From positions 32,001-96,000 of the forward strand of contig BTVY01000012.1 in NCBI GenBank assembly GCA_045863335.1: a stretch of 64,000 nucleotides of DNA, written 5' to 3'. Source of the stretch: Candidatus Hydrogenedentota bacterium. GTDB taxonomy: Bacteria > Hydrogenedentota > Hydrogenedentia > Hydrogenedentales > SLHB01. The position numbers and the translations under genes are program-made. The notes beneath the pieces are model-generated. The model searched no databases. It saw only the letters and a list, made by a program, of their open reading frames with translations, and was not told where the DNA came from. Positions 7,517 to 57,938 of the stretch are shown piece by piece. Within the stretch, counting starts at the first letter, position 1. Each line of letters opens with the position of its first letter.

Positions 7517-9322
7517 TTATACCAATTCTTCCAATTCGTCGACGAGCGTGGCGAACCGTTTCATGGCGGTGGCCACGGGTTCCGGTTGTTCCATATCGAC
7601 GCCCGCGTCGCGGAGCAATTCCAGGGGGAACTTCGAGCCGCCGCTTCCCAGGAAGTTGAGGTAGCGGTCGCGATCCTGTTTGCCGCCGTTGAGCACTTTC
7701 TGCGATAAGGCGATGGCCGCCGATATGCCGGTCGCGTACTTGTATACGTAGAAGGCGTGGTAGAAATGGGGAATCCGCAGGCCTTCCAGCGACAACTCCT
7801 CGTCGATCGCGAAGTCGGGTCCGAAATACAGCTTCAACAGTTTCAGATATTCCTCGCGCAGTCGCTCGAGAGTGAGCGGTTCGCCGACCTCGGCGATGGC
7901 GTGGATGACTTTCTCGAATTCCGCGAACATGGTCTGGCGCACGAGGGTGCCGCGGATCTCATCGATCTCCTTGTTGATAAGAAAGGCGCGCATCTTCTTG
8001 TCCTTCGCCTTGGACAGTAGATGCCGGTTCAAGAGTTGCTCGTTGAACGTCGACGCCACTTCGGCCACGAAAATCGTGTAGTCGTAGTATTGGAAGGGCT
8101 GATTGCGGGCGCTGTAGTACGTGTGCATCGAGTGGCCCGCTTCATGGGCGAGCGTAAACATGCTGTCGATGACGTCTTCGCGGTAGTTCATGAGGATGTA
8201 GGGCGGTCCGGCGAATCCACCCGCTGAGAAGGCGCCACTACGCTTGTTTTTGTTCTCATAGCGGTCCACCCATCGGCCGTTCAACAGGCCTTTCTCGAGC
8301 GTCCGGCAGTACTCCGATCCGAGCGGTTCGAGGGCTTCGCAAATGGTTTTGACCGCTTTGTCGTAGGGATTCTTCGTGCGCTTCATTTCCACGATGGGCA
8401 CGTAGGTATCGTAGGTGTGAAGGTCTTTGAGTTTGAGCGCCTTCCGCCGGACTTCATGGTACCGGTAGACCGTCTTGATGTTCTTGTGCACGGCCTTGAT
8501 GAGGCTGTCGTATACGGCGATGGGCACGTTGTCGTGAAAGAGCGACCCTTCCAGCGCGGACGGATAGTTGCGCACGCGGGACTGGTAGATATCCTGCTGA
8601 ACCGACGCGCTGAGCGTCGCCGCGACGGTGTTCGCGTGGGACTGGTATTGCTCGTAAAACTGGTGAAAGGCCGCCTTGCGGACTTCGCGCTTGGGCGACT
8701 CCAACAGGCTGCGGAAGGAACTCTGGGTCAGTTCTACCTTGCGGCCGCGCTCGTCCTTCACGGTGCCGAACTTGAGGTCGGCGTCGTTGAGCTGCCCGAA
8801 GACCCGGCCCGCCGTGCCGGCCACTTCGCCCTGCATGGCAAGGAGCCGCTCTTCCTTCTCGGACAAAATGTAGGGCCGGTAGCGCAAGAGCTTCTCCAAG
8901 GCGTACCGGAATTCTTTCAGCTTGGGATCTTTAAGGTACTTGTCGATCGTCTTTTTCGGAATCGCCTGGATCTCGGGGGCGATGAAGCTGGCCGCTTCGC
9001 TCGCGCGGGTCGCGACAAAGGTGTATTGCTGAATCATGCCTTGGTAGGTGCTGTTGGACACGTCTTCCGAGGCCTTGAGGAACGCGTACGAGCCCAGACG
9101 CTCGGCGAGCTTGTTGAACTCCACATCGAACTTATAACAGTCCAGCAACACCTTTGCGGAGGTGCCGAGCTTGCCGCGGAACTTCTCGAAGCGGGAAATC
9201 TGCTTCTCGAAATCTTTGAGCGCGGCCTGCCACGCCTTGTCGTCTTTGAAGAGATGCCGGAGGTCCCAGGTATCCGCAACCTTTACTTCTTTGCGCAAAG
9301 GGATCTTCTTCGTCGTTGCCAT
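7517..9322 (-). CDS. pepF: Oligoendopeptidase F (M3B)
   Basis: TWDL, KRSGAFS, TLAHEAGHSMH, FVAEVAS and IPHFY..FYVYKYA motifs. Confidence 0.97.
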   Translation of the reverse strand: MATTKKIPLRKEVKVADTWDLRHLFKDDKAWQAALKDFEKQISRFEKFRGKLGTSAKVLLDCYKFDVEFNKLAERLGSYAFLKASEDVSNSTYQGMIQQYTFVATRASEAASFIAPEIQAIPKKTIDKYLKDPKLKEFRYALEKLLRYRPYILSEKEERLLAMQGEVAGTAGRVFGQLNDADLKFGTVKDERGRKVELTQSSFRSLLESPKREVRKAAFHQFYEQYQSHANTVAATLSASVQQDIYQSRVRNYPSALEGSLFHDNVPIAVYDSLIKAVHKNIKTVYRYHEVRRKALKLKDLHTYDTYVPIVEMKRTKNPYDKAVKTICEALEPLGSEYCRTLEKGLLNGRWVDRYENKNKRSGAFSAGGFAGPPYILMNYREDVIDSMFTLAHEAGHSMHTYYSARNQPFQYYDYTIFVAEVASTFNEQLLNRHLLSKAKDKKMRAFLINKEIDEIRGTLVRQTMFAEFEKVIHAIAEVGEPLTLERLREEYLKLLKLYFGPDFAIDEELSLEGLRIPHFYHAFYVYKYATGISAAIALSQKVLNGGKQDRDRYLNFLGSGGSKFPLELLRDAGVDMEQPEPVATAMKRFATLVDELEELV

Positions 9323-9370
9323 GAAGGTACCTTTCTATAACGTTTCACGCCATGCAGAAGCGGCAGTATA

Positions 9371-10786
9371 TCAGGGAATCTCCGGTTCCAGCACGTGCAC
9401 GCCGAAACCGCGAATAGACAGGGTCAGCGTTCCGTGTTGCACGATGGTTTCTTGTTGTGTGAGCGGGTCGCGGTAGCTTGTGCCTTCCAGCGCGTCGAGT
9501 CCGTGGAGGGTGTAGACCAGCGGATCGCTCCACTCGTTCACGACCAGCAGATGGACCTTGTCACCGGACTGCTTGGGCAACACGCGGACGCCGCGATCGA
9601 CGGACCCCCAGGTCTCCGCCAAGGTGACGTCGATATCGAGATCGGCATCGGGCGCGGACAGGACGGGCTGTTGCGCGCTGAGTTCCGCGACGAGCGTGAG
9701 CAAGTCCGTCCAGAATCCGGAGTCTTTCTCAATGTACGCGGTGCCCCAATAGAGAATGCCGCGAGCGCCGTTGACGATGGCGTCGTAGGCCATGAACCGG
9801 GATTCCTCAAATGTGGGCCGGCGCAGCTCATCGCGTTTGGCCTGGTCATCCGTTTCGTCGGATATATCTGGCCACCCGAACCCTTGCAGGACCATCCAGA
9901 CCGGTTTGCCGGGCGCGGCCTCCTGCATGCGCTGCGTGTACGCGCCGACGCAGGAGAGCGACTTGTCGGCGAGGTCGGAGTGTCCGTTGTGGCGGCTTCG
10001 GGGAACCGGATAGATGTCGCACCCGACCGCGTCCGCGGCCCGATTGAACTCGGCGAGCTGCGCAATGCTGTTTCGCGGCGCATGGTTCATCCAGATAGGC
10101 CGTTCCGGGTCGATGGACTTGAGCACTCGGTACCCCTGCAACATCCCCGCGGCCATTTGTTCCGCGCGCTCGGGCGCGTTGGAGAGATTGAGGTCGGGAT
10201 TCGGCGGCGTTTTGTCGAGGCGACGCCAGATTTCGTCAGCGAGTTCCTCACCAACGCGAGGCTCCCCGCGTTCGAACGCGGCGTTCGCTTGATCGCGCAT
10301 GTCGCGCAACTCCGCCGCAAGGTCGGCGTTGTCCAGTTGGCTGATGAGGGCGTTCTGTTCGCGCGGCTCGTCACGGCGACGCCATAGCGTCGCGCCATAC
10401 CACACGTTCCACAACGCTTCGTCGGGGACCTCCCAAACCGCGAGCGCCGGGTGATGCGAGAAACCCGCGACCATTCGTTTCAACGCGGCTTCGCGCGATT
10501 CGGAATCGACGCTGAGATCGATGGATGCGCCGGTGTTGATCCACGCGTACATCTTCTTCGCCCACAACCGGTCGAGAGCGGCTTCGTCCGCGCTGGCGTG
10601 GATGAGATTGAAACCGGCCGCGGCCACCTGGTCCAGATTCTCATCCGGTGGATTCTCGTAAAGCCCGAGGACAAAGACGCGCTGTCCGTCGACCACCAGC
10701 ATTCCGTCTTCGGCAATTGCGGAGTCGGCGGCCCAGGCGCCTCCGGGGATTAGAAGTCCAGCGAGCACAAGGATGATATGTTTCAT
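9371..10786 (-). CDS. Secreted putative glycoside hydrolase (TIM-barrel, unclassified)
   Basis: Signal peptide; W.VPDE, GCDIYP, KPVWMVLQGF and AIVNGARGILYW motifs. Confidence 0.65.
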   Translation of the reverse strand: MKHIILVLAGLLIPGGAWAADSAIAEDGMLVVDGQRVFVLGLYENPPDENLDQVAAAGFNLIHASADEAALDRLWAKKMYAWINTGASIDLSVDSESREAALKRMVAGFSHHPALAVWEVPDEALWNVWYGATLWRRRDEPREQNALISQLDNADLAAELRDMRDQANAAFERGEPRVGEELADEIWRRLDKTPPNPDLNLSNAPERAEQMAAGMLQGYRVLKSIDPERPIWMNHAPRNSIAQLAEFNRAADAVGCDIYPVPRSRHNGHSDLADKSLSCVGAYTQRMQEAAPGKPVWMVLQGFGWPDISDETDDQAKRDELRRPTFEESRFMAYDAIVNGARGILYWGTAYIEKDSGFWTDLLTLVAELSAQQPVLSAPDADLDIDVTLAETWGSVDRGVRVLPKQSGDKVHLLVVNEWSDPLVYTLHGLDALEGTSYRDPLTQQETIVQHGTLTLSIRGFGVHVLEPEIP

Positions 10787-10927
10787 TGTCAATACTCCCG
10801 GTGTTACTTCCCACGATCGCTTCATCGTAGATCATGCAGAGGGGAAGGGCAAGGCGCCGTTCGGTTTTGCGCGGCCCAGCGAAAGGACTATAATCGAACG
10901 GACACGGGCAAGAATGGGGGTTCAGAC

Positions 10928-11743
10928 ATGCTTCCAGGAATCAATCAGTGGGGATTTCCTAACGACCTTCCCACGACGGAGGCCATCACGCTGGCCAAAC
11001 AGATCGGGTTTTCGGCGTTCGAAGTCTGTGTGGGCGACGAGGGGCCGACTTCCTTGGATCTTAGCGAAAAGGAGGCCACGGCCATCCGGCGGCACGCGGA
11101 ATCGCTCGGCATCGCGCTATGCAGCGTGGCCAACGGGATGGGTTGGAAATACCACCTCACGTCGCCGGACGCCGCGAATCGGGAAAAGGCGAAGGAGACT
11201 ATCGCGCAGACGTTGCAGGTTGCTTCCTGGTTGGGCGCCGATGCGGTGTTGGTCGTTCCGGGCGTGTGCGACGATGCGACGCGATACGACATCGGGATTG
11301 AGAATGCGTTGAAGAGTGTTCGCGAACTGGCTGACGCCGCGGAGAAGCTGAAGGTCTCCATCGCTATTGAGAACGTGTGGAACAAGTTTCTGTTGAGTCC
11401 GGACGAAATGCGGGATTTTATCGATCAGTGTGAAAGCAAGTACGTGGGCGCGTATTTCGATACCGGCAACATCATGCTGTACGGACTTCCGGAGCAGTGG
11501 ATTGAGATCCTCGGCAATCGCATTCGCGCTGTCCATTTGAAGGATTTCCGCTGCGCCGTGGGCAATCTCGACGGTTTCGTCATGTTGATGGAAGGCGATG
11601 TGAATTGGCCCGCCGTAATGAGTGCGTTGCGGGGAATCGATTACGATCGCGCATTGACGGCGGAGTATTGGCCGTACAAACACTCGTTGGAGGCGACGTT
11701 GCGGCAGGTGTTGGCAGGACAACAGGCGATTCTGGCATTGTAG
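10928..11743 (+). CDS. Sugar phosphate isomerase/epimerase (xylose isomerase-like TIM barrel)
   Basis: IAIENVWN, FDTGN, VHLKD and TAE metal-ligand motifs. Confidence 0.92.
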   Translation: MLPGINQWGFPNDLPTTEAITLAKQIGFSAFEVCVGDEGPTSLDLSEKEATAIRRHAESLGIALCSVANGMGWKYHLTSPDAANREKAKETIAQTLQVASWLGADAVLVVPGVCDDATRYDIGIENALKSVRELADAAEKLKVSIAIENVWNKFLLSPDEMRDFIDQCESKYVGAYFDTGNIMLYGLPEQWIEILGNRIRAVHLKDFRCAVGNLDGFVMLMEGDVNWPAVMSALRGIDYDRALTAEYWPYKHSLEATLRQVLAGQQAILAL

Positions 11744-40564: not shown

Positions 40565-40935
40565 AGCTCGTGGTCGACATGAATCTCTCACCCGGCTGGA
40601 TACCCATTCTCGAACATGAAGGGTGGCCGGCCGTGCATTGGTCTGACGTCGGCGCTCACAATGCCACCGATCGGAGAATTCTGGAGTGGGCACAAGACAA
40701 CGAACATTGCATCTTGACGCATGATCTGGATTTCGGGGCAATCTTGGCCGCGGGAGGTTACAGGAGCCCAAGCGTCGTTCAGATCAGAACACAGAACTTG
40801 GCTCCCGATGCACTTGCAAACCTGATGCTCGACGTGCTCCGGCAGTACGAATCGGAAATCGAAAGCGGCGCATTACTCGTTGTAGACGAGTCCGCATTGC
40901 GGGTGCGCCTCCTCCCATTGAGGGGCAACACGTAA
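40561..40935 (+). CDS. DUF5615 PIN-like toxin
   Basis: MKLVVDMNLSP, ATD..I and LTHDLDFG motifs; ATGA overlap with DUF433. Confidence 0.93.
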   Translation: MKLVVDMNLSPGWIPILEHEGWPAVHWSDVGAHNATDRRILEWAQDNEHCILTHDLDFGAILAAGGYRSPSVVQIRTQNLAPDALANLMLDVLRQYESEIESGALLVVDESALRVRLLPLRGNT

Positions 40936-41019
40936 TTCACTTGCGCGACGTCTCTCGTGCCCGTAGCTCCTGAATGAAACCCTTGATTAGCCGCCTCTTT
41001 CTGTATTCAATTGTCTCCC

Positions 41020-42996
41020 ATGCACGAACCTCATGCACTCATGCACGTTGTGGCCCTGTTTGGCACGGCCGTGGTTGCGGCCTGGCTGTTTCGGGTCGTG
41101 CGCGCGCCGTCGATCATCGGCTATCTCGTCACCGGGATTGTGATTGGCCCCTCCGGGCTGACACTCATCCCGGAGGAGGAAGTCGCCGGCCTGGCTGAGA
41201 TGGGGCTGGTGCTCCTCCTGTTTACCATCGGGTTGGAACTCTCGCCCAAACCCCTCCTGCGGATGGGCAGGAGCCTGCTCATCGCGGCGGGACTGCAAAT
41301 CGGGGGGACCGCGGCGCTTGCCGCCGGCATTACGAAGGTCCTGACACCTTACGACGTCGTGCCATCGTTGGTGATTGGGTTTGCCGTGGCGCTCAGCAGT
41401 ACGGCGATCGTCCTGAAGCAACTTAGCGACCGCGGCGAAACCGGCACCGGCACCGGCATGATCACGACGGGAACGCTGCTCCTTCAAGACGTTATCGTAA
41501 TCGCCATCATGCTGTTCCTGCCACTCCTGGCTCCCTCGGGGGACGGCGGGTGGCAAGGAGCGGCAATCCGTGGCGGCGTCGGGTTGATTGGCCTTGGGCT
41601 GGCTGCCGTGTTCGGGCGCCACTTGCTTTCCTGGTTTCTGGAGAACATCGTACGCACCGGCGGACGAGAATTGGTTGCCCTGTTCGCGGTTCTAATGGCC
41701 TGCGGCGGCGCCTGGCTCGCGGCCCTGGCGGGATGGTCCCCGGCGCTGGGCGCCTGTGTGGCGGGGTTGCTTCTCGCCGAACTGGACGTCCGGCATCAGC
41801 TCGTGGCCGACATCATGCCCTTCCGCGATGTATTCAATGCGCTCTTCTTCGTAGCGCTCGGCATGAAGGTCAATCTGGGTTTGCCGGTCGAGCACCTGAT
41901 CTGGATCGGCGTGGCCATCGGCGTGATTGTGGTTGGCAAATCCATCCTCACGGCAATGGCCATCCGTATCGCCGGTTGGCCGCTCCGGCCTTCCCTCCAT
42001 GCCGGAATTGGACTTTACACGGTAAGTGAATTTGGCTATGTGCTCGGCATGGAAGCCGCAAAACTGGGCATCATTCCCGCGCAAGTGTTGGGCGCGTTCA
42101 TCGTCTGCGCCGTGGGGACAATGCTCATCGGCGCGGGAATGGTGCCGCTGGCGGGCCCGCTATCCCTGCGAGCAACCCGACGGTTTGGGTCCCCTGACGG
42201 GCCGGGCGCCGCGCTCCCGGGCGAGTCCGGTACCCACCATGTCATTATCGTGGGCTACGGCATCAACGGCCAGAACCTGGCGCGCGTTCTGAGATCGACG
42301 CACATTCATCACACGGTGATCGAAATGAACCCGCAGCTCGTCGCGGCGGCCCAGGAGACGGGCGCCGAGGTGATTGTGGGCGATGCCGAGCGCAAGTCCA
42401 TTCTCGAGCATGCGGGCATCGCTCACGCCCACACACTCGTGGTGGCGATCAACGACCCCGGGTCGACGCAACGCATCGTGTCCGTGGCGCGCAATTTACG
42501 GGCCGATCTGTTTATTCTGGCCCGTACCCGCTTTGTTTCGGAACTGGATGCCTTGTATCAGCTCGGCGCAGACCGCGTGATTCCAGAGGACTTTGAAACG
42601 TCTATCGAGATCGCGGCCCACGTGCTCAAGGAAATGGACATCCCCGACAATATCGTCGAAGCGCAGATCGCCGCCGTTCGCGCGGGCCGCTACGGCATGC
42701 TCCGTGGCAAACCCACGGACCGCGCCGCCCACGAGGAATTGATGCAGGTTCTCCAAGCCACGGTCACTCGCACGCACTACGTGACTGCCGATAGTCATGC
42801 CGTTGGCAAGACAATAGCCGAACTGAACTTGCGCGCTGTGACCGGAGCCTCCATCATTGCCGCCGTCCGCAATGGCACCCCCCTCACCAACCCGGCTCCG
42901 GACTACGTCATGCAGGCAGGAGACGTACTGGTCCTCGTAGGGGCCCACGTCCAGTTGGAAGGCGCGAAGTCGCTGCTCCAAGAGCGCGAAGCGTAG
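41020..42996 (+). CDS. CPA2 (KefB/KefC-like) cation:proton antiporter with TrkA-N and TrkA-C domains
   Basis: LLFTIGLE, LSSTAIV, LLQD, PFRD, IVGYG and GKTIAEL motifs. Confidence 0.93.
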   Translation: MHEPHALMHVVALFGTAVVAAWLFRVVRAPSIIGYLVTGIVIGPSGLTLIPEEEVAGLAEMGLVLLLFTIGLELSPKPLLRMGRSLLIAAGLQIGGTAALAAGITKVLTPYDVVPSLVIGFAVALSSTAIVLKQLSDRGETGTGTGMITTGTLLLQDVIVIAIMLFLPLLAPSGDGGWQGAAIRGGVGLIGLGLAAVFGRHLLSWFLENIVRTGGRELVALFAVLMACGGAWLAALAGWSPALGACVAGLLLAELDVRHQLVADIMPFRDVFNALFFVALGMKVNLGLPVEHLIWIGVAIGVIVVGKSILTAMAIRIAGWPLRPSLHAGIGLYTVSEFGYVLGMEAAKLGIIPAQVLGAFIVCAVGTMLIGAGMVPLAGPLSLRATRRFGSPDGPGAALPGESGTHHVIIVGYGINGQNLARVLRSTHIHHTVIEMNPQLVAAAQETGAEVIVGDAERKSILEHAGIAHAHTLVVAINDPGSTQRIVSVARNLRADLFILARTRFVSELDALYQLGADRVIPEDFETSIEIAAHVLKEMDIPDNIVEAQIAAVRAGRYGMLRGKPTDRAAHEELMQVLQATVTRTHYVTADSHAVGKTIAELNLRAVTGASIIAAVRNGTPLTNPAPDYVMQAGDVLVLVGAHVQLEGAKSLLQEREA

Positions 42997-46308: not shown

Positions 46309-47202
46309 TTACAAACTGAAGTCTATCACGATCAACATCAACAAGAGCGGAAGGTACAGCACGGACGTCTTCAACACCCGTCGCGCATCGGTCACGGACC
46401 CGCTGCGGACCAGCGGAAAACAAGACGCCAGCATGTAAAGGCCCAGCAGGACCGCCCCGACAAGGTAGAAGTAACCGGAGAGGCCAATGAACGTCGGCAA
46501 CAACGATACGGGGATCAGCACCACCGCGAACCCCACGATCTGCCGGAAGGTGCGTTTACCGGCGGGGTCATCCACCGGCAACATCTTGAACCCGCCCTTG
46601 CGGTAGTCGTCTTTGAAAATCCACGCGATGGAGTAGAAGTGCGGCTGTTGCCACACGAACAGGATCAGAAACAAAACCCATGCGCCCGCTTCGACTTGCC
46701 CCGTCGCGGCTGTCCAACCGCCCATGGGCGGCAGCGCGCCCGGCACCGCGCCGATGAGCGTGTTCAACCAGGACACCCGCTTCATGGGGGTATAAACCAG
46801 CACGTACAGGAACGCGGTGAGCAGCGCTAGAAACGCGGTAATCAGGTTGACCTTCCACATGAGCAGCATCACGCCGCCCAACACGAGGTACTCCCCCATC
46901 AACAGTGCGTGATTCGCCGGGACCGCGCCGGACGGGATGGGCCGGTTTCGCGTGCGATCCATGCGCGCGTCAATGTCGCGCTCGAGGAAATGATTCAGCG
47001 CGCCGGACCCGCCGGAGACCATGGCCACGCCGATGAGCGTGTAGATGAGTCCCTGGAACGAGTCCCATCCATGAAACCCGATGCCGCCCATGAAATACCC
47101 CAAAGTGGCGGTAACCAACACCAACGACGTAATACGCGGTTTGGTGAGGTCCAGATAGGCCCCATAAGGGACAGCACGAAGTCGAACAGCTACTGCGGAC
47201 AC
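46309..47202 (-). CDS. cyoE: Heme o synthase (protoheme IX farnesyltransferase)
   Basis: LTKPRI, DARMDRT.NRP, YTPMKR, GA.PP..GW and WQ.PHF motifs. Confidence 0.96.
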   Translation of the reverse strand: MSAVAVRLRAVPYGAYLDLTKPRITSLVLVTATLGYFMGGIGFHGWDSFQGLIYTLIGVAMVSGGSGALNHFLERDIDARMDRTRNRPIPSGAVPANHALLMGEYLVLGGVMLLMWKVNLITAFLALLTAFLYVLVYTPMKRVSWLNTLIGAVPGALPPMGGWTAATGQVEAGAWVLFLILFVWQQPHFYSIAWIFKDDYRKGGFKMLPVDDPAGKRTFRQIVGFAVVLIPVSLLPTFIGLSGYFYLVGAVLLGLYMLASCFPLVRSGSVTDARRVLKTSVLYLPLLLMLIVIDFSL

Positions 47203-47418
47203 GGGGAAACGTACCTCGTCTCGTTGAACGTACAGCCAATCACGGTAGAATCCGGCCCACCAGGACAGACCGGAAGCAAGGAGTATAGCGAAAACCCGCT
47301 TCGAAATTCGACAAACCCTTGGTCAGGCAGGAAAACACCGCCGAGTCGCGAACTATTTCACGATATGTGGTCTATTTTTGAGCGTAGATTCTGCAGCCCC
47401 GGTGCCGGTGAAAACCGG

Positions 47419-48204
47419 TCAGGGACGTGGCATGGGGACCCGTTCGCCCTTCTGGACGCGCTTTAATTGGTCCAGTAAGTCCCCCGCGTTTTCCCGGATG
47501 GACCGATTGAAACCGGATTTAGTGTCTACGTGTGACTTGGAGACGTCACGGAGCGCGTCGATGGCTTGATCCAGCGGAGGGTACATGAAAAGGGCCACCA
47601 GTGCGCACTGACACAAAGATTCGCGGGGTCCACCCACGTAGCCCGCGTCTGGTTCGGCGTCGACTCCGACGAAGGCGCGCGACGTTGCCTTCTTGACAAG
47701 TTCTATGTTCCTATCATTGCCCGAGAGAGCCAAATATCCAATCGCCGGCGCCACGGAATTCATGGCTTCGTCGGGAAGATCTGCGGCGGATTCGATTAAG
47801 CCACGAGCGAGTGTTTCAACGCGGACATCCTGCACACCCTTCCATGCAACGGACAAGGCGACCTGTACGACTGGCCAATTGGGTGGATCCTGCGCATACG
47901 CATCGAAAAGCGTCGTGACTATATAGGCTTCTTCATCTGGAGGACGTGGTGATTTGTGCCACGCCGCCATCGCTTGGCGCCTAACCGCGTCCGGTACAGT
48001 GAAGTCTCCCAAGTATATTGCATCATGTTCGTTCGTCGTTTCCTCGTTGAGCGCGAATAGCCTCGGATCGCTCTCCTTCAGCAACATGACTTCCGGCGTG
48101 AATTTTTGGTCGTATTGTGGGGGCGGGGTCTCGCAGTATGCCCATGCACCAATGAATATCGATGCGGCCACATAATTTAACAATTGTCGGGATCGCATTT
48201 GCAT
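47419..48204 (-). CDS. Hypothetical exported helical protein
   Basis: 261-aa ORF with a hydrophobic N-terminus and atypical codon usage. Confidence 0.6.
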   Translation of the reverse strand: MQMRSRQLLNYVAASIFIGAWAYCETPPPQYDQKFTPEVMLLKESDPRLFALNEETTNEHDAIYLGDFTVPDAVRRQAMAAWHKSPRPPDEEAYIVTTLFDAYAQDPPNWPVVQVALSVAWKGVQDVRVETLARGLIESAADLPDEAMNSVAPAIGYLALSGNDRNIELVKKATSRAFVGVDAEPDAGYVGGPRESLCQCALVALFMYPPLDQAIDALRDVSKSHVDTKSGFNRSIRENAGDLLDQLKRVQKGERVPMPRP

Positions 48205-48317
48205 GGCAAGTCCCCGTTGCGCTTTGCCCGATCCAAGCGAATGTCACACGGCGCTCGAGCTTCCAGTGGTCGTCGTTCCCATTTAATCCTGTGGCGATGG
48301 CTTGAGTTCCAAAGTAA

Positions 48318-48429
48318 TCGCGCGGTCGGCGACCGCGCGAGACTTTGTAGAGAGTCTACTGGCGTGGAGCAGCGTAATTCCTTCCCGTTCCTGGGGTTCT
48401 CTGGAATGCCGCGCTCGGCGAGCGCGGCA
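48318..48429. repeat. Pair of related GC hairpins (REP-like) downstream of the htpG remnant
   Basis: tcgcgcggtc-ggc-gaccgcgcga and tgccgcgctc-ggc-gagcgcggca. Confidence 0.65.
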
Positions 48430-48465
48430 GCACGAACGACAAACAAATCACACAACAGAAGATGG

Positions 48466-48558
48466 CTATCCCGCATGGACCATCAGGTTGGCCACGAGTT
48501 TGGCGAACTCGCCCGGGTTGGGAGGCTGATTACCTTCGGCGAGAGCCGCCTGGCCGTA
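48466..48558 (-). pseudogene. htpG: Displaced 3' end of htpG (30 codons plus stop)
   Basis: Translates YGQAALAEGNQPPNPGEFAKLVANLMVHAG*, versus YGQAALAEGNQPPNPGQFAKLVADLMVQVK* at 54403-54495. Confidence 0.92.
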
Positions 48559-48592
48559 AGTTAATACAAGAAAATGAATTACGCACAGACAC

Positions 48593-51556
48593 TTATAATT
48601 CCCCATCTTCATCGTGTGCCATAGAATCCATTATCTCGTTCGACAGGTCGAAGTCGACGATGGTTTCATAGCCTGCGCGCAGTTCCGCTTGATAACTCAG
48701 GTGTCTTCGTTGCGCCCTCAAGAATAACGTGACATCCACTATCCCCTCGGGCAGACCTTCGATTGCATATTCGCCGGATTCTGGTACTTCCACGGTTAGT
48801 CCATCACCATCGGGAAAACTGGCATACACGGAACAATTTTCCGGAGTGGAACCATTGACCAGTACCGTGCCGCTGACAACGGCTTCCGGCGCCAAGTTTA
48901 TCTGCACCTCGGATCGCTCGGACGGAGGGAAAAAAACGCGCGACGGCGCCCATCCCGCTGCGACAACCGTAAGCTCCACCGTCGTGTCTGTAGGCAGGAC
49001 AGAGGACTCGATCTCGAAGACACCATCCTGGGTACTCACGGCCGCCGCGCCGCTGGATGGAAATGGCATCCGGTGTGCTCCAACGTACACCTTTGCTCCG
49101 GATACGGGTCGTCCGTCGTTTCCCAGGATTTTTCCTCGCAGTGGCGGTCCAGAAGGGTCAAGGGACACAATCACCCCTTCTTTAGATTCACCGTCATGAA
49201 CCGCGCCCAGTTTGACGACGGTCTGTGCGAATCCTGAAGCGCGAACGCCAAGTTGAATAAATCCCGGAGCCACAGTCATAACGAATGCCCCGTTCGGGTC
49301 CGATATCAACTGTGCTTCCGTTTCAAACGCTTGCCCTATATCTGCAACTCCACGTACAGCACACATACGAAATGCAGTAACCGGACTTCCCGTGCCGGAA
49401 TCTATCACACGGCCTGAGACCGTTGCGGGGCGTGGCAGAATGAAATCGACGCCTTCCGAACCTGCCGGAACGGTCCGGCTTTGGGAGCGGGCAAAGATCG
49501 CCGCACCCACCCCGCGTCGACTGGGGCTCGCTTCCACGGTGTAGTCTCCTGCGGGAAGCCCCCATAATTCATAGGAACCGTCTATTTCAGAACTATCTGA
49601 AACGGGAGTTCGCCGTCCGTCGACCTCGGTACGAATCGTCGCGCCCCGGACCGGGCCGCCGTCCTCGTATAACACATGCCCCCGAATGCTCAGTAAAGAA
49701 TCGTCCAACACGATTCGCAGCCCCGCCAGGTGCTCGCCAGAACCCAGGGTTATCTGCATTGCACTGGCGGTAGACCCCCAGTCACCCTGCAAAGTCCCTT
49801 TCCCGCCCACCTTCAGGTCATGCACGCCCTCGCAGAGCCCGGCAATAGTGAATGCGCCCTCCATATCCGTAAAGGTAAGAGCTTCACCGAGTAACCACGG
49901 CACGTCACCTAATGGCTCCAGCATTACCCCTACCCGCGCGGGCCGATTGAACGAGTCGACGACCCTACCGGAAACCGCACAGTTCCGCGCGACATCAAGT
50001 GTCACGGTGACGTCCTCTTCACCGGGAGAATACGGACCATGGGGTGTGCTCGCGCGGTCCGTCGTCCAAGCCACAAGGGTGACGCTTTCGCCGGTCCCGC
50101 ATCCGTACAGGTCGAAATGCCCCTCAGAATCGCAGGCCGTTTCAAAGGTTCTTGCCGTCACCTTGGCGAAGGGCGCCGGTTCCCCGGTAGGAAGGACTAC
50201 GGTACCCGAGAGCGCAAGACCAAGTTCGGGCAAGGTGAAGTCCACGCCCTCGACGGCCTGGCCTGGATTCACCCTTATCAAGCGACTTGGCCCCAGTATC
50301 GTCCACCCCAGCATGGCGTACGGATGGGGCGGGTTCATGGATATTGCATACAAGGCCGGCGCCAATCCACGCACTTCGTAGCTTCCATCCGGTGCCGCGC
50401 TCACGGCTAATCGCCCGGGGACTGTATGCGTGGGCTCGACAGGCCCCGCCCCGATGGTTGCCCCTGCAACGCCCTCACCCGTGCCCGATACGAAAACGCG
50501 ACCACGCACCACGCCACCTTCGTCAAGTCGCAGTTCCACATCGGTCACATCTTGCGAGTCAAACACCTGAAACGTGCTGTCCGTATTGACAACTATGAGG
50601 CGCAGATCGCCGGACGCCAGCATATAGGTTCCTTCCGGCAATGCCTCGAAAGCGAACTTCCCCGCATCGTCAGCGAGTGTCTCTTCCTGCTGCGTCCCAC
50701 TGACCTCTTTCGCCACGACTTTGACACCGGGAACGGGTGCGCCATCCGAGGCATGAACACAGCGACCCGAAAGCGAACCGCCTCGCAATATTGTAATTGT
50801 CACCCCGGCCGTACCAACGTCGATCGGTTCAGTCATCCGAGTCGCAAATCCCGAGGCAGAAACGCGCAAGCGCCACGCATAAGGTAGCAAGGAAGTAAGG
50901 GTGAATTGACCGTCGGTGCCAGTATCGCAAGCAAAACTCCGTTCCACGGCTGGAGGAACCGGCCAATCATTATGGACCGCAGGAGCCACATAGGCGCCGG
51001 AAATCGAGCTGCCGCTCGCGTCAACGACCGTGCCGCTTATCGAACCACCTTCGCGGAGAACCAGCATCACGACGCCAGACGCGACACCGGACTTCACCAG
51101 GACACTTTCCCAGGCGATTGCCGCATCCTTCTGCGCCACAACTACGTAAGCGCCATCCGATACCGTTCGAAAGACAAACCGGCCCGTTTCATCGCTGTGT
51201 TCGATCGGCGGCGCATCGCCGGTTTCCGGCCAGACTCCCGCCAAAATTCCATGCACGGAAGGATACAGTTGGACTTGGGAGTCGGGCACCGGCTCGCCGT
51301 ACGGGTCCAGCACCCAACCGGGAACGACGCCACCAGCCCGGCTCACTGCGCTGGCCGTGGAGGGCGCAGTTGCGCGCGTGGGCACAGCGGCTTTTCTGGG
51401 GATGGGCCGCGATTGCTCGCGAACTGGCACTCTCGGCTTGGATACTTCGTCGCGGTTATTCTTTACCGGCCAGTGGCCGCTCTGGAAAAGAGCCAACACG
51501 ATTGCGAGGATGCACAAGACAAGGCACCACGCCACCACCCACCATCTACTCCGCAT
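48593..51556 (-). CDS. Membrane-anchored protein with multiple carboxypeptidase regulatory-like (transthyretin-like) repeats
   Basis: N-terminal TM helix; about 9 repeats of SG.V.D..G.P..GA.V ... DG.F....L..G.Y. Confidence 0.85.
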   Translation of the reverse strand: MRSRWWVVAWCLVLCILAIVLALFQSGHWPVKNNRDEVSKPRVPVREQSRPIPRKAAVPTRATAPSTASAVSRAGGVVPGWVLDPYGEPVPDSQVQLYPSVHGILAGVWPETGDAPPIEHSDETGRFVFRTVSDGAYVVVAQKDAAIAWESVLVKSGVASGVVMLVLREGGSISGTVVDASGSSISGAYVAPAVHNDWPVPPAVERSFACDTGTDGQFTLTSLLPYAWRLRVSASGFATRMTEPIDVGTAGVTITILRGGSLSGRCVHASDGAPVPGVKVVAKEVSGTQQEETLADDAGKFAFEALPEGTYMLASGDLRLIVVNTDSTFQVFDSQDVTDVELRLDEGGVVRGRVFVSGTGEGVAGATIGAGPVEPTHTVPGRLAVSAAPDGSYEVRGLAPALYAISMNPPHPYAMLGWTILGPSRLIRVNPGQAVEGVDFTLPELGLALSGTVVLPTGEPAPFAKVTARTFETACDSEGHFDLYGCGTGESVTLVAWTTDRASTPHGPYSPGEEDVTVTLDVARNCAVSGRVVDSFNRPARVGVMLEPLGDVPWLLGEALTFTDMEGAFTIAGLCEGVHDLKVGGKGTLQGDWGSTASAMQITLGSGEHLAGLRIVLDDSLLSIRGHVLYEDGGPVRGATIRTEVDGRRTPVSDSSEIDGSYELWGLPAGDYTVEASPSRRGVGAAIFARSQSRTVPAGSEGVDFILPRPATVSGRVIDSGTGSPVTAFRMCAVRGVADIGQAFETEAQLISDPNGAFVMTVAPGFIQLGVRASGFAQTVVKLGAVHDGESKEGVIVSLDPSGPPLRGKILGNDGRPVSGAKVYVGAHRMPFPSSGAAAVSTQDGVFEIESSVLPTDTTVELTVVAAGWAPSRVFFPPSERSEVQINLAPEAVVSGTVLVNGSTPENCSVYASFPDGDGLTVEVPESGEYAIEGLPEGIVDVTLFLRAQRRHLSYQAELRAGYETIVDFDLSNEIMDSMAHDEDGEL

Positions 51557-51659
51557 TTCATCAATCTCCTGGACGGCGAGCAAACTCTGGACACAAGCGG
51601 TACGTCCGACTCAGAAATGAATCGCACCAGAAGCATTGGGCATTGGTGCTTGCGCGGTG

Positions 51660-52682
51660 CTATTTCACAAACGCGTATGCCTCGACGCGCACCTCTGCTT
51701 CGGCCCCGGGTACTTCAGATAAGATCCTGAATACACCCCGCTGTGCCCCAGTGCGCCCGGGCTCCGCTCTCGCCAAGACACGCAACCGGGCAGCGTCTGA
51801 CAGCCGTTCCAACTCCGACGCGAAGATCGTCGCCTCCGGATCGATCACCCTCATACCGGACAAGTCATACCCATACGGTGATGTGACTTCTATAATGTCA
51901 CTACGTCGATCACCTTCCGGCAGAACACCCAGGAAGATGCGTGACTTGGAGACCTCAAATGGGTACTGGACATAGGCGCTCAGCGCAATTTGCTTTACCG
52001 GCACTTCGGAATCATTGGTCGTTACCCACAGATTTTCCGCGACCAAACCATACGCGGTGGATTCCCGCAGTTGAATCGTGAATTCTTGCGCGCCCGCGCT
52101 GCCCCCAATTTCTCCGTAATCCACCTGGAATGCAGTCAAATGACTTACCTTCAGAATCTCAAGGACAGGTTGGCCCGGAAATCCCTCCATCGTGAAACGA
52201 TGGACACGACCTTCGCCTCTTGGAACCGTGCCGAAATCGATGCGTGACGGATGCTCCTCCTTAACAACCCCAGTGATACGAAACAAACGCGGCTCCCTCT
52301 CATTGACCCATCGAACGCGAATCAATTCGTTAACGCGGCCGCTTCGTCCGCTGAGGTGAAGCCGAACCGGAAACGGCAAGACACCTTTCGGCTCGATGAC
52401 TTCCCCTCGAATGTCTTGCGTTGCCGTGCAGCCGCAACTCGTTCCTACTTCTGCTACCTCGACGCTTAGGTCGGTGGGATTTCGAAGGAGGAATGAATGG
52501 TGTATTACCGCGTTGGCGCGTGCAATTCCAAAGTCATACAACTCTTCTTGCGCGGACTGCGAATACGTATTGCCAGATCTCCCCATCGTAATAAGTAGGG
52601 TGCAAAGAGCGGCGCCCCCTATCGCTACCAAGCCGAATAGCTCGTACGCACGATTCCTGGACATTCGTGGTCGCAAAAACAT
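51660..52682 (-). CDS. DUF1573 domain protein
   Basis: YDFG...HSF.LRN....V..V.TSCGCT...IEP; further Ig-like domains; N-terminal TM helix. Confidence 0.88.
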   Translation of the reverse strand: MFLRPRMSRNRAYELFGLVAIGGAALCTLLITMGRSGNTYSQSAQEELYDFGIARANAVIHHSFLLRNPTDLSVEVAEVGTSCGCTATQDIRGEVIEPKGVLPFPVRLHLSGRSGRVNELIRVRWVNEREPRLFRITGVVKEEHPSRIDFGTVPRGEGRVHRFTMEGFPGQPVLEILKVSHLTAFQVDYGEIGGSAGAQEFTIQLRESTAYGLVAENLWVTTNDSEVPVKQIALSAYVQYPFEVSKSRIFLGVLPEGDRRSDIIEVTSPYGYDLSGMRVIDPEATIFASELERLSDAARLRVLARAEPGRTGAQRGVFRILSEVPGAEAEVRVEAYAFVK

Positions 52683-52717
52683 GATTTGTCCCGTTTTGGA
52701 AAGGGGCGAGCTACGCC

Positions 52718-53206
52718 CTAGTTGGAACACGAGCCCAATCCGACCCAAGCCAGTTGCTCTACAAGACCGTAGTCAACCGCATTCATACACATATAAGTGT
52801 TCTCATCGGGAGAATCACAGTATTGACAGTCGGGGTGTGATTCCGGCGTTTCACACTCAATGTCGGGATTTTTCTTGCATTTATACTTTCTGGCGCAAAT
52901 GTACCAGTTCTCGGGGACCTCAGGATCTGCAAGTTCGTAACCTGAGTACCCTGGGTAAGGTCTTTCGAAGGGAAGAGGAACGTTCTGTACGTCTTGGTAC
53001 GCATGAATATACGTACAAGCATACCCCAGATCACAGTTCATGTTGCATGGTGGGATTGGTACCGGGCAAGGCGCCAGATTAATTTCATAGCAGGGAACCG
53101 CGGAAGCCGACTTAGCATCGAAGATCCCCTCCAACGCGGCGGCGAAGGTGAAGATGGCTAGCCACAAGAGAAGCGGTTTGATCCAATATTTGTTCAGGCA
53201 TCCCAT
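52718..53206 (-). CDS. Small secreted cysteine-rich protein
   Basis: GGAGG RBS, signal peptide ending ASA, 12 Cys in the mature part. Confidence 0.75.
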   Translation of the reverse strand: MGCLNKYWIKPLLLWLAIFTFAAALEGIFDAKSASAVPCYEINLAPCPVPIPPCNMNCDLGYACTYIHAYQDVQNVPLPFERPYPGYSGYELADPEVPENWYICARKYKCKKNPDIECETPESHPDCQYCDSPDENTYMCMNAVDYGLVEQLAWVGLGSCSN

Positions 53207-53275
53207 TATCCTACCCTCCATAAGTGTTACTTGATCTGTGCCTTTCCCCATATGCACTCACGTAGTGTATCAAAC

Positions 53276-54274
53276 CTATTCCGTATCTTTGATCCCGCCA
53301 GCGAATTCCGAGGGCACCAATTCGTTTCCGATCACCTCCAGAACATCGATCTGGCCAACTATATCCGTGCGGAAAAAAGGTACCGCTGTCCGGCGGGGCA
53401 AACTCCTCCATGTAAATAGTTCGTCGTCCAGATGCGGGTTTAATTGTACATCCTCTACGGTGTTGAGTGAATGGCCCTCCAGGATAGCAGCGCCGTCATC
53501 GTATCGGTAGTCGGATTGCTCCCACTTCAATGGAAACCACCGGCCCGGATCGACTTCGCGCGGGACAACCGTGTACTCGAAAGATATTCTTCCCTCCTCG
53601 TCGTAAACTTCGCCGTGCGTAACAAAATATCCTGCCAAGGGGGCCAACAGGATTGTGCAGATCTGATGGGTTTTGTGAAAGACTTTGATCTCGAAAAGCT
53701 CACGCTCGTCCTGCCTGTTTTCGATTTCGACCGTTACGTCGGCACCATTCAGCGCGGCATCATGAATCTGGGCAAGACTGTTGATACCATTCCCAAAGGC
53801 ATACAACCTGAAATCCCTTGGGTTGAACGAGTGTAAGGCTTCCCGAACGCGCTTGGATTTCAAATCAATAGCGGAGTGTTCATACATATACGCGGCGGCG
53901 CTGCGCTCATACCATTGAGCGAGGTACTGAGCGTTCAGTACTAGAATCCCATGTTCCTTGGTAATCTTCGGAGGATCCGAAACGCGTTCTTCAAAGGTCC
54001 GATCCCGCTCGATTCTTCGCCACTCTCCCTTCTCAAACTGCGTATGTTGAGTATTCCACTCTCGCGTGCCATCGGGTTCGTAGTACGTCCATATCTCGCG
54101 CATCTCGAAGGAAAGTGATCTCAAGGTGTCTTGGGCATTCTGCTGTTCTTTCACGAAGTTTCCCAGAAGTGCGGTCGCGTCTTCGCCAACAAATGTCTGG
54201 TCGCTCCATGCTGGCAGGCCACCTAAAGCGCAAAGGAGTATTGACAATCGAGAAAACCTTAAGAAGGGAATCAT
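53276..54274 (-). CDS. Secreted hypothetical protein, LolA-like beta-sheet fold suspected
   Basis: Signal peptide; beta-rich; WFP...VEDVQLNPHLDDELF. Confidence 0.65.
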   Translation of the reverse strand: MIPFLRFSRLSILLCALGGLPAWSDQTFVGEDATALLGNFVKEQQNAQDTLRSLSFEMREIWTYYEPDGTREWNTQHTQFEKGEWRRIERDRTFEERVSDPPKITKEHGILVLNAQYLAQWYERSAAAYMYEHSAIDLKSKRVREALHSFNPRDFRLYAFGNGINSLAQIHDAALNGADVTVEIENRQDERELFEIKVFHKTHQICTILLAPLAGYFVTHGEVYDEEGRISFEYTVVPREVDPGRWFPLKWEQSDYRYDDGAAILEGHSLNTVEDVQLNPHLDDELFTWRSLPRRTAVPFFRTDIVGQIDVLEVIGNELVPSEFAGGIKDTE

Positions 54275-54328
54275 GAGCCACTCCAACTCGATCCGGCCCC
54301 CACCATGGCTTCGTGATTGCTTGACCTC

Positions 54329-54357
54329 ATTGTACGCTGAACAGCATTATCTGTCAA
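54329..54357 (-). promoter_or_regulatory. Near-consensus sigma70 promoter driving the islet operon
   Basis: Minus strand TTGACA-gataatgctgttcagcg (17 bp)-TACAAT, about 55 nt upstream of ATG 54274. Confidence 0.75.
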
Positions 54358-54402
54358 TAGACTAAAGGGGACAGTAATGCTCCATAACAGTCATTCATTA
54401 TG

Positions 54403-56349
54403 TCACTTTACCTGCACCATCAGGTCCGCCACCAGCTTCGCGAACTGGCCGGGGTTCGGCGGCTGATTGCCTTCGGCCAAGGCTGCCTGACCGTAAAGCA
54501 ATTGGGCATAATCACTTAGGCGTGTATCCGTTGGATCGGCGGTGTAGATAGTCTTTAACTTCTTCAGAATCGGGTGGTTCGGGTTTAACTCCAAGATGCG
54601 CTTGGTCTTAGGAACGTCCTGGTTCGCCGCGCGCATGAGCTGTTCCAACTGGGGGCTCATGTCGAACTGGTCGCCGACGAGGCAGGCCGCCGAACTGGTC
54701 AGACGCTTGGACAGACGGACCTCTTTGACGTGCTCGTCGAGCTTTTGCTTGAGGCATTCCAGCAGAGACTTGTGTTCTTCCTGCTTGGTCTTGAGTTCTT
54801 CCTCGGCCTTCTTCCGCTCTTCCTCGCTCCCGAGTTCGACAGTCCCTTTGCCGACGGACTGGAAGCGTTTTCCGTCGAACTCGAACATGGACTGAGTCCA
54901 CAGCTCGTCGACGTTATCCGTGAGGATGAGCACCTCGTAGCCTTTGTCGCGGAATGCTTCGAGGTGCGGCGAGCTTTCGATGGCCGCGCGCGATTCGCCG
55001 GTCATGAAGTAAATGCATTCCTGGTCTTCCTTCATGCGGTCCTTGTAGGCGCGCAGGGTGGTCAACTCGGCAGAATCGTTCGTGGACGCGAACAACACAA
55101 GATCAAGGAGCGACTCGCGGTTTTCGTTGTCCTGGTAAAGCCCTTCCTTGAGCACCTGCCCGAACTCGTTCCAGAACGCGAGGTACTTGTCATTATCGGA
55201 TTCGCGGAGCTTCTTGAAGGAGTCCAGGAGTTTGTTGACGACCCCTTTGCGGATGCGCTGGATCTGGCGGTTCTGCTGGAGGATCTCGCGCGAAATATTC
55301 AACGAGAGATCTTCGGAATCGACGACGCCTTTCACGAAGCGCAGATACTCCGGCAACAACTCCTTGCAGTCGTCCATGATGAAGACGCGCTTCACGTAGA
55401 GCTGAATGCCCCGGCGGCCGTCGCGCATGTAGAGATCGAAGGGCGCGCGGGACGGGATGAAGAGGAGCATCTGGTATTCGAGCGTACCCTCAATCTTGGC
55501 GCGGATGGTTTCCAGCGGCGGCGTCCAGTCGTGGGAGACGTGTTTGTAAAACTCGTTGTATTCCTCTTCCGTAACTTCGTCCTTGTCGCGAAGCCAGATG
55601 GCCTTCATCGAATTCAAGGTTTCGATCTCGACAACCGTTTCCTCTTTCGCGCCTTCGATGGGTTTGCCCTCGTCATCGCGCGGGACGCGGGTTCGCGTAA
55701 TTTCCATCTTGATGGGATAGGCCACGAAATCGCTGTATTTCTTGACGATCTCGCGAATCTTCCATTCCTCGGTGTAGTCGTGGAGGCCGTCTTCGGAGTC
55801 CACGGACTTGAGGTGGAGGGTCACCGCGGTCCCGGCTTCCGGCACGTCGACTTCTTCAAGCGTATACGTCCCCTCGCCCGCGGATTCCCAGCGGACGCCC
55901 GCGGTTTCCCCGGCGTGGCGCGTGACCAGGGTGACCTTGTCGGCCACCATGAAGGACGAGTAGAACCCGACGCCGAACTGTCCGATCAGCTCCGGCGATT
56001 CGGCCTCCTTCGCCTGCTTCAGGACGGACATGAATTCGCGCGTGCCGGACTTCGCGATGGTGCCAATCAGGTCGATCACGTCCTGCCGCGTCATGCCGAT
56101 CCCCGTGTCGCGCACGGTCAAGGTCCGCGCTTCGGGATCGGGCTCGATTTCGATGTAGAGTTCCGTTCCCTCGGGCATGAGGTGCGGCTCGGTCAAGGAC
56201 TGAAACCGGCGACGGTCCAACGCGTCGGATGCGTTGGAGATGAGTTCCCGCAGGAAGATGTCCTTGTTCGAATAGATCGAGTGGACCATGAGATCCAGGA
56301 GTTGCCGGGCTTCCGCCTGAAACTCAAAGGTCTCTACTGTCGCGCTCAT
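54403..56349 (-). CDS. htpG: Molecular chaperone HtpG (Hsp90)
   Basis: FQAE, IFLRELISNASDA, DTGIGM, GTIAKSG, IGQFGVGFYS and LNISREILQ motifs. Confidence 0.99.
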   Translation of the reverse strand: MSATVETFEFQAEARQLLDLMVHSIYSNKDIFLRELISNASDALDRRRFQSLTEPHLMPEGTELYIEIEPDPEARTLTVRDTGIGMTRQDVIDLIGTIAKSGTREFMSVLKQAKEAESPELIGQFGVGFYSSFMVADKVTLVTRHAGETAGVRWESAGEGTYTLEEVDVPEAGTAVTLHLKSVDSEDGLHDYTEEWKIREIVKKYSDFVAYPIKMEITRTRVPRDDEGKPIEGAKEETVVEIETLNSMKAIWLRDKDEVTEEEYNEFYKHVSHDWTPPLETIRAKIEGTLEYQMLLFIPSRAPFDLYMRDGRRGIQLYVKRVFIMDDCKELLPEYLRFVKGVVDSEDLSLNISREILQQNRQIQRIRKGVVNKLLDSFKKLRESDNDKYLAFWNEFGQVLKEGLYQDNENRESLLDLVLFASTNDSAELTTLRAYKDRMKEDQECIYFMTGESRAAIESSPHLEAFRDKGYEVLILTDNVDELWTQSMFEFDGKRFQSVGKGTVELGSEEERKKAEEELKTKQEEHKSLLECLKQKLDEHVKEVRLSKRLTSSAACLVGDQFDMSPQLEQLMRAANQDVPKTKRILELNPNHPILKKLKTIYTADPTDTRLSDYAQLLYGQAALAEGNQPPNPGQFAKLVADLMVQVK

Positions 56350-56645
56350 GATTCGTATCCTCCGTTTCCTTAGACAGTTGGTATCGCGCACGCCCGAGAG
56401 CGATTTGCTGGTTGGATGGCGAGCGGCCGAATCGTCTGCCGTGCCCGATAGACAGGCCCAGACCGAGTTTCATCGACAGCCCGAAGGGCGCTATTTTAAT
56501 CAATATCCGCTCGTAAGGGAAGATACCGAGGCGCCGGCCAGGTCCGTCAACCTTTGGCGCCGGTAAGGCGTTGGCGCAACAGGGATCGCCGTGTGCCGCG
56601 AGCGCGTGGTATAGTGGTGCGATGCGCCCAAACGACAGGTCCAAC

Positions 56646-57622: not shown

Positions 57623-57834
57623 TGGGTCGGGCTTTCAGCCCTATGGACAAAAGACGCTCCCTTTCCTGGGCCTGCGGCCCAGGCTGGTATTGAACGGGCC
57701 GTTGGCCCTCCAGAAAGTTTCCTTTTGACATGAGGGAAATGACGTTTGCGCCAACGGCGCGCTCTATACCAGCATGGGGCACCGCCCCATGAAAACGGGG
57801 ATCCCTGAATATGAAGGGCTGAAAGTCCGATCCA
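57623..57834. repeat. Composite palindromic element with the same architecture as 34394-34616
   Basis: tcgggctttcagccct, cctgggcctgcggcccagg, gggccgttggccc, gcgccaacggcgc, catggggcaccgccccatg, agggctgaaagtccga. Confidence 0.8.
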
Positions 57835-57938
57835 CGTTCCACCGATAGATGGGTCAGAAAACACCTTGACGCTGGGTGCATTTCGAACGGTGCTGCAAAA
57901 CATCACCCCTCTTGCGCGTGATTTCCAGGGGAATCACC

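Follow-up and report, generated by a model that had tools for sequence, protein, structure and literature searches.

We analyzed a window of 64,000 nucleotides (nt) from a Candidatus Hydrogenedentota bacterium, in which the chaperone gene htpG is followed by a compact gene cassette and, behind it, by a second copy of its own 3' end. The window corresponds to positions 32001-96000 of contig C12 (137 kb) of the source genome G000, a metagenome bin of 6.75 Mb in 105 contigs, and coordinates given without a contig name follow the window numbering. Read along the minus strand, the gene order is htpG, four cassette genes of 336, 179, 362 and 996 amino acids (aa), a 93-nt htpG fragment, a 261-aa orphan gene, cyoE, SCO1 and DUF420. 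htpG itself (54403-56391, minus strand) is intact and encodes 662 aa (Pfam HSP90, E 8.9e-144). Its functional last 30 codons plus TGA, hereafter tailB (54403-54495, minus), translate as YGQAALAEGNQPPNPGQFAKLVADLMVQVK, also written ...PGQFAKLVADLMVQVK, and end in ...MVQVK*, an ending unseen in congeners. The second copy, tailA (48466-48558, minus), consists of 30 codons plus TAG, translates as YGQAALAEGNQPPNPGEFAKLVANLMVHAG, also written ...PGEFAKLVANLMVHAG, and ends in ...MVHAG* as congeners do; we interpret it as the displaced resident htpG end.

The first-pass annotation had reported that the same 30 HtpG codons occur twice, with 12 codons identical, 13 differing synonymously and 5 non-synonymously, and our recount agreed, the TGA and TAG stops being aligned. 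The two tails are 74% identical, and their 24 nucleotide differences fall 4, 3 and 17 at the first, second and third codon positions (binomial P 1.9e-4 for at least 17 of 24 at third positions). A whole-genome protein search recovered tailA at E 1.1e-9, far beyond chance, and in a repeat search the pair was the top direct repeat, with an interval of 5,844 nt and a repeat spacing of 5,937 nt. Homology begins sharply in tailA at a Tyr codon, 30 codons before the stop; upstream of it are 34 AT-rich bases, the right-hand junction (48559-48592, minus), and then the stop of the 996-aa gene. At their starts the repeats share only TTACGG and then CAGGC, and the longest identical run between them anywhere is 8 nt. 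We also observed a 49-codon open reading frame (ORF; MKMGNYK..., 48466-48612, minus) that overlaps the end of the 996-aa gene and continues into tailA. No ribosome-binding site was seen before it; if translated, it would give a free HtpG C-terminal segment.

Between the tails lie four co-directional minus-strand genes, which make up an operon for envelope or secreted proteins. Gene 1 (53276-54286, 336 aa) is an orphan with an N-terminal hydrophobic segment and gene 2 (52718-53257, 179 aa) is Cys-rich with a hydrophobic N-terminus; neither has a match in Pfam, NCBIfam, PADLOC or PHROGs. A search with the gene 1 protein among 5.8 billion proteins returned only itself, and a resemblance of its Atlas model to LolA/LolB-like TP_0789 and DUF4292 folds is no more than a lead. 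Gene 3 (51660-52748, 362 aa) encodes an Ig-like DUF1573 protein (PF07610, E 3.2e-11), and gene 4 (48593-51583, 996 aa) a membrane-anchored protein with six CarboxypepD_reg repeats (PF13620, E 1e-58, 6 stretches). Gene 1 has a 22% identical paralogue on contig C4 of G000, and a distant paralogous set of all four components, 22-30% identical, lies on that contig at 158197-163848. Since the four components recur there as a set, the cassette appears to be one complete envelope module.

The composition of this DNA sets it apart, as had been noted before: the GC content at third codon positions (GC3) is 0.54-0.605 for the four genes (3rd-9th percentile of 4,017 ORFs) versus 0.80 for htpG and cyoE (91st percentile). 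The codon composition of tailB, by our own count, is htpG-like. A promoter of the cassette's own, likewise proposed earlier, is present as a consensus match: a sigma-70-like TTGACA-17-TACAAT at 54357-54329 (minus) that agrees at 11 of 12 positions and lies within the 116 nt that separate gene 1 from the htpG stop. Family scans of both strands also bore out that no recombinase is encoded, since neither a recombinase nor a transposase was found in the four genes (Pfam, NCBIfam, PADLOC and PHROGs) or in eight antisense ORFs (Pfam). The matches to PF00589 (six) and PF00239 (two) in G000 are all on other contigs, and none is on the 137-kb contig. The cargo is so compact, with non-coding ends of 116 and 34 nt, that there is no space for a decayed integrase. 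With no transposase family, no terminal inverted repeats at the cassette in the repeat search and a flanking repeat that is 93 nt long and diverged, the insert does not resemble a transposon or insertion sequence (IS).

The site was then compared among five congeners, G001-G005. In G001, G002 and G004 it is empty: htpG is followed by cyoE after about 200-275 nt, and the htpG tails resemble tailA, ending in MVHAN*, MVHAG* and MVHAE*, respectively. G003, likewise a metagenome bin and a separate species from G000, carries the same cassette together with tailA. A comparison of htpG-cyoE intervals had been suggested as a check, with an empty allele ending in ...MVHAG* expected; such alleles exist, with exactly that ending in G002, and relatives do vary downstream of htpG. 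The site in G005, the closest relative that lacks the block shared by G000 and G003, was left unscored, its htpG contig stopping at residue 615 and cyoE and the tail not being found in the assembly (91% complete). Outside the genus cyoE does not follow htpG, so that wider synteny is uninformative on the site. In G004 the htpG gene (contig C23, 50840-52805) reads as four frame-shifted pieces with an internal TGA, representing either a pseudogene or assembly indel errors.

Comparison of the two filled sites revealed a near-identical block (48545-55600) that shows only 2 mismatches in 7,000 nt by sliding identity (48601-55600). It comprises the cassette, itself 99.97% identical between the species, tailB and the last ~1.2 kb of htpG. 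The block ends inside htpG at ~55600, and beyond it identity is 87-94% (the 5' part of htpG, cyoE and the other flanks); other loci compared between G000 and G003 are 89-96% identical. On the opposite side, the bin 48401-48600 holds seven mismatches, all of them inside tailA. These seven differences, among 93 positions, are all synonymous, for which a rough estimate that takes about a quarter of random changes as synonymous gives a chance of ~6e-5 in a decaying fragment. Because the block is near-identical while tailA diverges synonymously, the tail is native to each recipient background and the block is the part that moved. The comparison thus indicates that each species kept its own formerly functional tail, and that the 3' part of htpG, tailB and the cassette were exchanged between the species recently. 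The earlier view that the two tails are alleles rather than a fresh duplication is upheld both by the third-position bias between them and by the exclusively synonymous differences between the tailA copies.

Both junctions are real and not an assembly artefact. The stretch is present at least partly in thirteen studies, and we examined contigs from four sludge or wastewater runs outside the likely source sample (X2, X3, X5 and X6). The cassette-tailA junction is spanned by contigs X2 record 5 (48484-53824) and X3 record 10, and the htpG-cassette junction is covered by X2 record 6 (53808-54985) and by X3 records 14 and 15, which have 21 nt in common at the stop. A G003-type allele, in which a 37-nt spacer replaces the 1.1 kb directly behind tailA (47364-48464, minus; joint 47363->48465), is present in X2 and X6. 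That 1.1-kb segment in G000 contains REP-like (repetitive extragenic palindrome-like) hairpins and the 261-aa orphan gene (47419-48204, minus; GC3 0.60). Beyond it lies cyoE (46309-47202, minus), a UbiA-family prenyltransferase gene, which comes right after htpG in the congeners with an empty site.

The REP-like sequences are GC-rich palindromes of ~34 nt, located at 48398-48440 and 48318-48340 (48305-48352), with dozens of copies across the five congeners. One of them makes up the terminator-like hairpin that follows tailA, and in G004 another follows htpG. A different repeat, MITE-like (resembling a miniature inverted-repeat transposable element) and ~250 nt long, is found at 57679-57910; many copies, 75-81% identical, occur in G000, G003 and G005, but G003 lacks it at this position, where the alignment has a gap.

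Tail-flanked inserts were also found elsewhere. In a survey of 135 genomes of the phylum, 77 of which had an htpG match, internal extra htpG C-terminal fragments occurred only in G000, G003 and G046, with no recombinase between the tails; further extra fragments in G038, G052 and G064 proved to be contig-end truncations rather than remnants. In G046, a genome of a different family, htpG and a displaced tail of 230 nt are separated by a DUF433/DUF5615 toxin-antitoxin pair. This tail is 88% identical to the functional one, with 22 of the 27 differences at third positions (P 3.8e-7), and its breakpoint falls ~77 codons before the htpG stop versus 30 in G000. Which G046 tail is native could not be told by distance to congeners, the identities being too close. 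Right behind the displaced tail, on the opposite strand, we observed a HicB/HicA pair (L056 9539-10015), so that two toxin-antitoxin modules flank the remnant. The proposal that htpG serves as an anchor for swappable cassettes therefore held weakly: G046 shows other cargo with a displaced tail, but within the genus there is one cargo (G000 and G003) or none (G001, G002 and G004).

A scan of 4,806 G000 ORFs for repeats of gene ends up to 25 kb downstream gave 110 raw matches, mostly tandem paralogues or repeats. Two loci resembled the htpG arrangement. On contig C39 (26285-29700) a PhoD-like gene is followed by a RelE/ParE-like pair, named from our reading of the translations and not from a family scan, and by a 96-nt copy of the gene end; the insert holds no recombinase. 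Within the genus this locus exists as an empty site (G003), as a cassette without remnant (G004) and as a cassette with remnant (G000). On contig C42 (25880-27262) an insert of 471 nt, which contains a small membrane ORF and again no recombinase, separates a short-chain dehydrogenase/reductase (SDR) gene from a 105-nt copy of the gene end that is 91% identical. Since small tail-flanked cassettes occur at other G000 genes, the feature is not specific to htpG. An acrB-like 40-nt repeat was not counted, because it flanks an IS200-like transposase.

The comM gene, with a 467-nt remnant 18 kb downstream, was rejected as an integrase-free case, being part of a nested hotspot of large serine recombinases. 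The hotspot involves 8820-11373, 40766-42328, 48569-50194, 68325-68807 and 81513-81995 on contig C4 of G000. There, comM is split beside a large serine recombinase. Within ~73 kb the region also holds another full comM, two more 3' fragments and, in between, a second serine recombinase. All three comM 3' fragments start at residue ~380. From its layout, the region looks like nested or tandem site-specific insertions.

We slightly favor the view that the cassette was imported by way of homology in htpG, was joined at the tail through a short homology and later spread between species. The 5.8-kb operon would have been acquired from a related, unsampled Hydrogenedentota lineage, in which it was located directly behind that lineage's htpG. 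Entry would have needed no element-encoded recombinase: the left end of the incoming DNA would pair with the resident htpG and undergo a homologous crossover, and a short identity at the Tyr codon that lies 30 codons ahead of the resident stop would serve to join the right, non-homologous end, in a process like homology-facilitated illegitimate recombination. As a result, the functional htpG would end in the donor tailB, leaving the resident tailA as a dead remnant behind the cargo. A unit made up of the htpG 3' part, tailB, the cargo and the first bases of tailA could then move between related genomes, with the remnant as right-hand homology. Movement by this same route would explain the near-identical 7-kb block in the second species. 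The model also predicts the empty site of the G000/G003 clade, namely a native htpG that ends in ...EFAKLVANLMVHAG* and is followed at once by the 37-nt spacer or REP, with cyoE next.

Several observations point to the homology route. The crossover lies inside a conserved upstream anchor and a resident 3' fragment is retained downstream, as in homology-anchored displacement; the tails are allelic and the cargo is compact. Breakpoints vary, with remnants of 93 nt (G000 and G003) and 230 nt (G046) at htpG and of 96 and 105 nt at the two other genes. ComEC, DprA and ComM genes are present; they lend weak support, since controls show these families to be widespread. Ku was not found. The original proposal, in which the resident htpG tail was displaced by one that arrived with the incoming DNA, is supported by the tailA-like ends of the empty sites, the third-position bias and the block that stops at tailA.

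Other results weigh against an import of this kind. No donor was found: a search with the gene 1 locus gave only G003 among genome contigs and nothing in metagenome contigs, and a degenerate ...DLMVQVK* pattern in metagenome contigs hit 15 chance loci, none of them HtpG or a cassette protein. tailB is 76-82% identical to congener tails, similar to the htpG body (78-83%). As tailB is thus no farther from congeners than the body is, its probable foreign origin is not demonstrable by sequence distance alone; it is deduced from the block pattern and from the QVK* ending, which is unusual. An assignment of the native tail by distance likewise failed, the 93-nt identities being too close (tailA and tailB are each 81.7% identical to G004). 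Exactly the same right junction is found in G000 and G003, even though the tailA copies of the two diverge from base 15; a site-specific recombinase would give such precision, and under the homology model the join must have used the 14-15 identical bases at the tail start. With a longest identity of 8 nt between tailA and tailB, ordinary RecA recombination between these copies is implausible. Finally, the end of the G005 htpG contig has 9 mismatches in 47 positions versus ~7% elsewhere, in a region that is variable in all pairs, which gives no more than a hint that divergence there may start upstream of the repeat.

One possible extension of the import model, which we put forward tentatively, is that the displaced tail is a working part, so that units of gene end, cargo and old gene end form a class of recombinase-free mobile cassettes. 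The upstream gene and the remnant would serve as left and right homology arms, through which toxin-antitoxin pairs and small operons would enter naive, empty sites of related species by host recombination. A remnant acting as homology arm would explain why the block stops exactly at the start of tailA and why tail-flanked cassettes occur at several genes and at the htpG of another family.

The cassette could instead be a site-specific element that lost its integrase, like a cis-mobilizable element (CIME), or that is moved in trans by a recombinase encoded elsewhere. Its attP side would then bring the substitute htpG end, with tailB in attL and tailA in attR. The architecture does fit icd - e14 - icdC as portrayed in the relevant passages of PMC13626634, with a gene running into the element, a displaced C-terminal pseudogene and mostly synonymous differences. 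The cassette-tailA junction is the same in two species whose tailA copies differ at seven positions, both repeats start with TTACGG, which could serve as crossover core, and the same genome has a true site-specific 3'-end hotspot at comM, beside a large serine recombinase and with fragments from residue ~380. However, neither the cassette nor the 137-kb contig has a recombinase and no pseudogene fits the 116-nt and 34-nt ends. There are no inverted repeats and no shared core beyond 8 nt, a length that would suffice for a serine recombinase but be borderline for a tyrosine recombinase. In htpG the near-identical block continues for 1.2 kb past the supposed core, an extension not expected from site-specific integration alone, and the independent G046 event breaks htpG at a different codon. 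Neither an excised-cassette joint nor a hybrid empty site was present in the contigs of the four runs, though contigs and bins, to which our material was confined, drop rare excised or circular forms. We regard this explanation, the main rival, as less likely.

That the tails arose in place, by a long target-site or tandem duplication at insertion followed by divergence, is very improbable. The copies do agree in length and register and stop at the same position; but their identity is only 74%, compared with 99.97% between the two species for the cassette that they enclose, and decay should hit the codon positions equally, whereas third positions account for 17 of the 24 differences and the tailA copies of the two species differ synonymously in seven of seven cases. 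Least credible of all is that tailA is the last piece of a degraded second htpG paralogue or that a strain mixture was mis-assembled. The two genomes are indeed metagenome bins, and the G003 contig is a mosaic of 100% and ~90% blocks relative to the window. But the homology ends abruptly at codon -30, 34 nt from the neighbouring gene stop, congeners have an empty site and a single htpG, both junctions are spanned in independent studies (X2, X3 and partly X5 and X6) by contigs that join G003-type tail variants to the cassette, and the 14-15 nt shared at the junction are too short for a k-mer assembly jump.

Two further arrangements were noticed in G000. On contig C2 (152951-159287) the full 535-aa gene of an FGGY sugar kinase is preceded by a 280-aa 5' fragment, with three genes without known family between them on the opposite strand; 39 of 40 residues are identical in the shared stretch. 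This may be a 5'-end counterpart of tail replacement. Contig C3 carries, at ~75957-78500, a CRISPR-like array with a period of 67 nt and ~35 copies of a repeat whose translation reads IVEGLQNGVKPQ / CRRAAKWGQAAT.

Recognisable mobility genes are missing from most chromosomal hotspots of gene gain, and the entry of DNA at them has been argued mainly from statistics. Here, one genus preserves intermediate states, with empty sites, a filled site that has both a putative donor and a displaced gene end, and a 7-kb block shared between species whose flanks differ by 6-13%. The locus thereby offers a concrete, testable example of how cargo is gained without an integrase when a housekeeping gene serves as anchor, from an uncultured phylum that is frequent in wastewater sludge, together with a hint that toxin-antitoxin modules may travel likewise. 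The cargo is a recurring, uncharacterised envelope module of LolA-like, Cys-rich, DUF1573 and CarboxypepD_reg repeat proteins. Taken together, the finding is real and well bounded, and the core of what the first-pass annotation had proposed holds.

Among known systems, e14 (and phage 21) at icd of Escherichia coli is described, in the passages of PMC13626634 that cite Hill et al. 1989, as bringing a substitute 3' end that keeps the gene intact and leaving an icdC remnant with mostly synonymous differences. As in that account, the DNA inserted at htpG provides a substitute 3' end and the resident end persists at the far side, the two forming direct repeats at both borders. Unlike e14, which has its own integrase and SOS-induced excision, the htpG cassette has no recombinase, phage gene or clearly identifiable core and is one compact operon. 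CIMEs are cis-mobilizable elements at gene 3' ends in streptococci, as introduced in the excerpted text of PMC5704250. They are decay products of integrative and conjugative or integrative and mobilizable elements and need a cognate element at the same site; none was seen at htpG in the genomes examined, in a survey that covered extra tails, elements leaving no remnant falling outside it.

A second kind of relative is formed by the effector-immunity arrays of the type VI secretion system (T6SS) in Vibrio cholerae and by Rhs loci, where, in the portion of PMC5361080 that treats them, an incoming module anchored in a conserved upstream gene is proposed to displace the resident 3' part by homology-facilitated illegitimate recombination. 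The htpG locus shares with that description the upstream homology anchor, the resident 3' part kept downstream and the absence of an integrase. It differs from T6SS, Rhs and contact-dependent inhibition (CDI) loci, which carry polymorphic toxins and immunity genes and in which orphan retention is selected, in having a chaperone as anchor, unrelated cargo and a remnant without obvious function. In E. coli experiments, recombinase-free integration from one homologous arm duplicated 109-950 bp of the gene end, according to the part of PMC3240628 that reports these integrants. The natural cases here, at 93-230 nt, are similar to those duplications; unlike laboratory integrants with identical homology arms, however, their copies are 74-91% identical and the events are deduced from comparative data only. 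The htpG locus is best viewed as akin to two known kinds of process, 3'-end substitution and homology-anchored displacement, to which it adds an interspecies block and recurrent tail-flanked cassettes.

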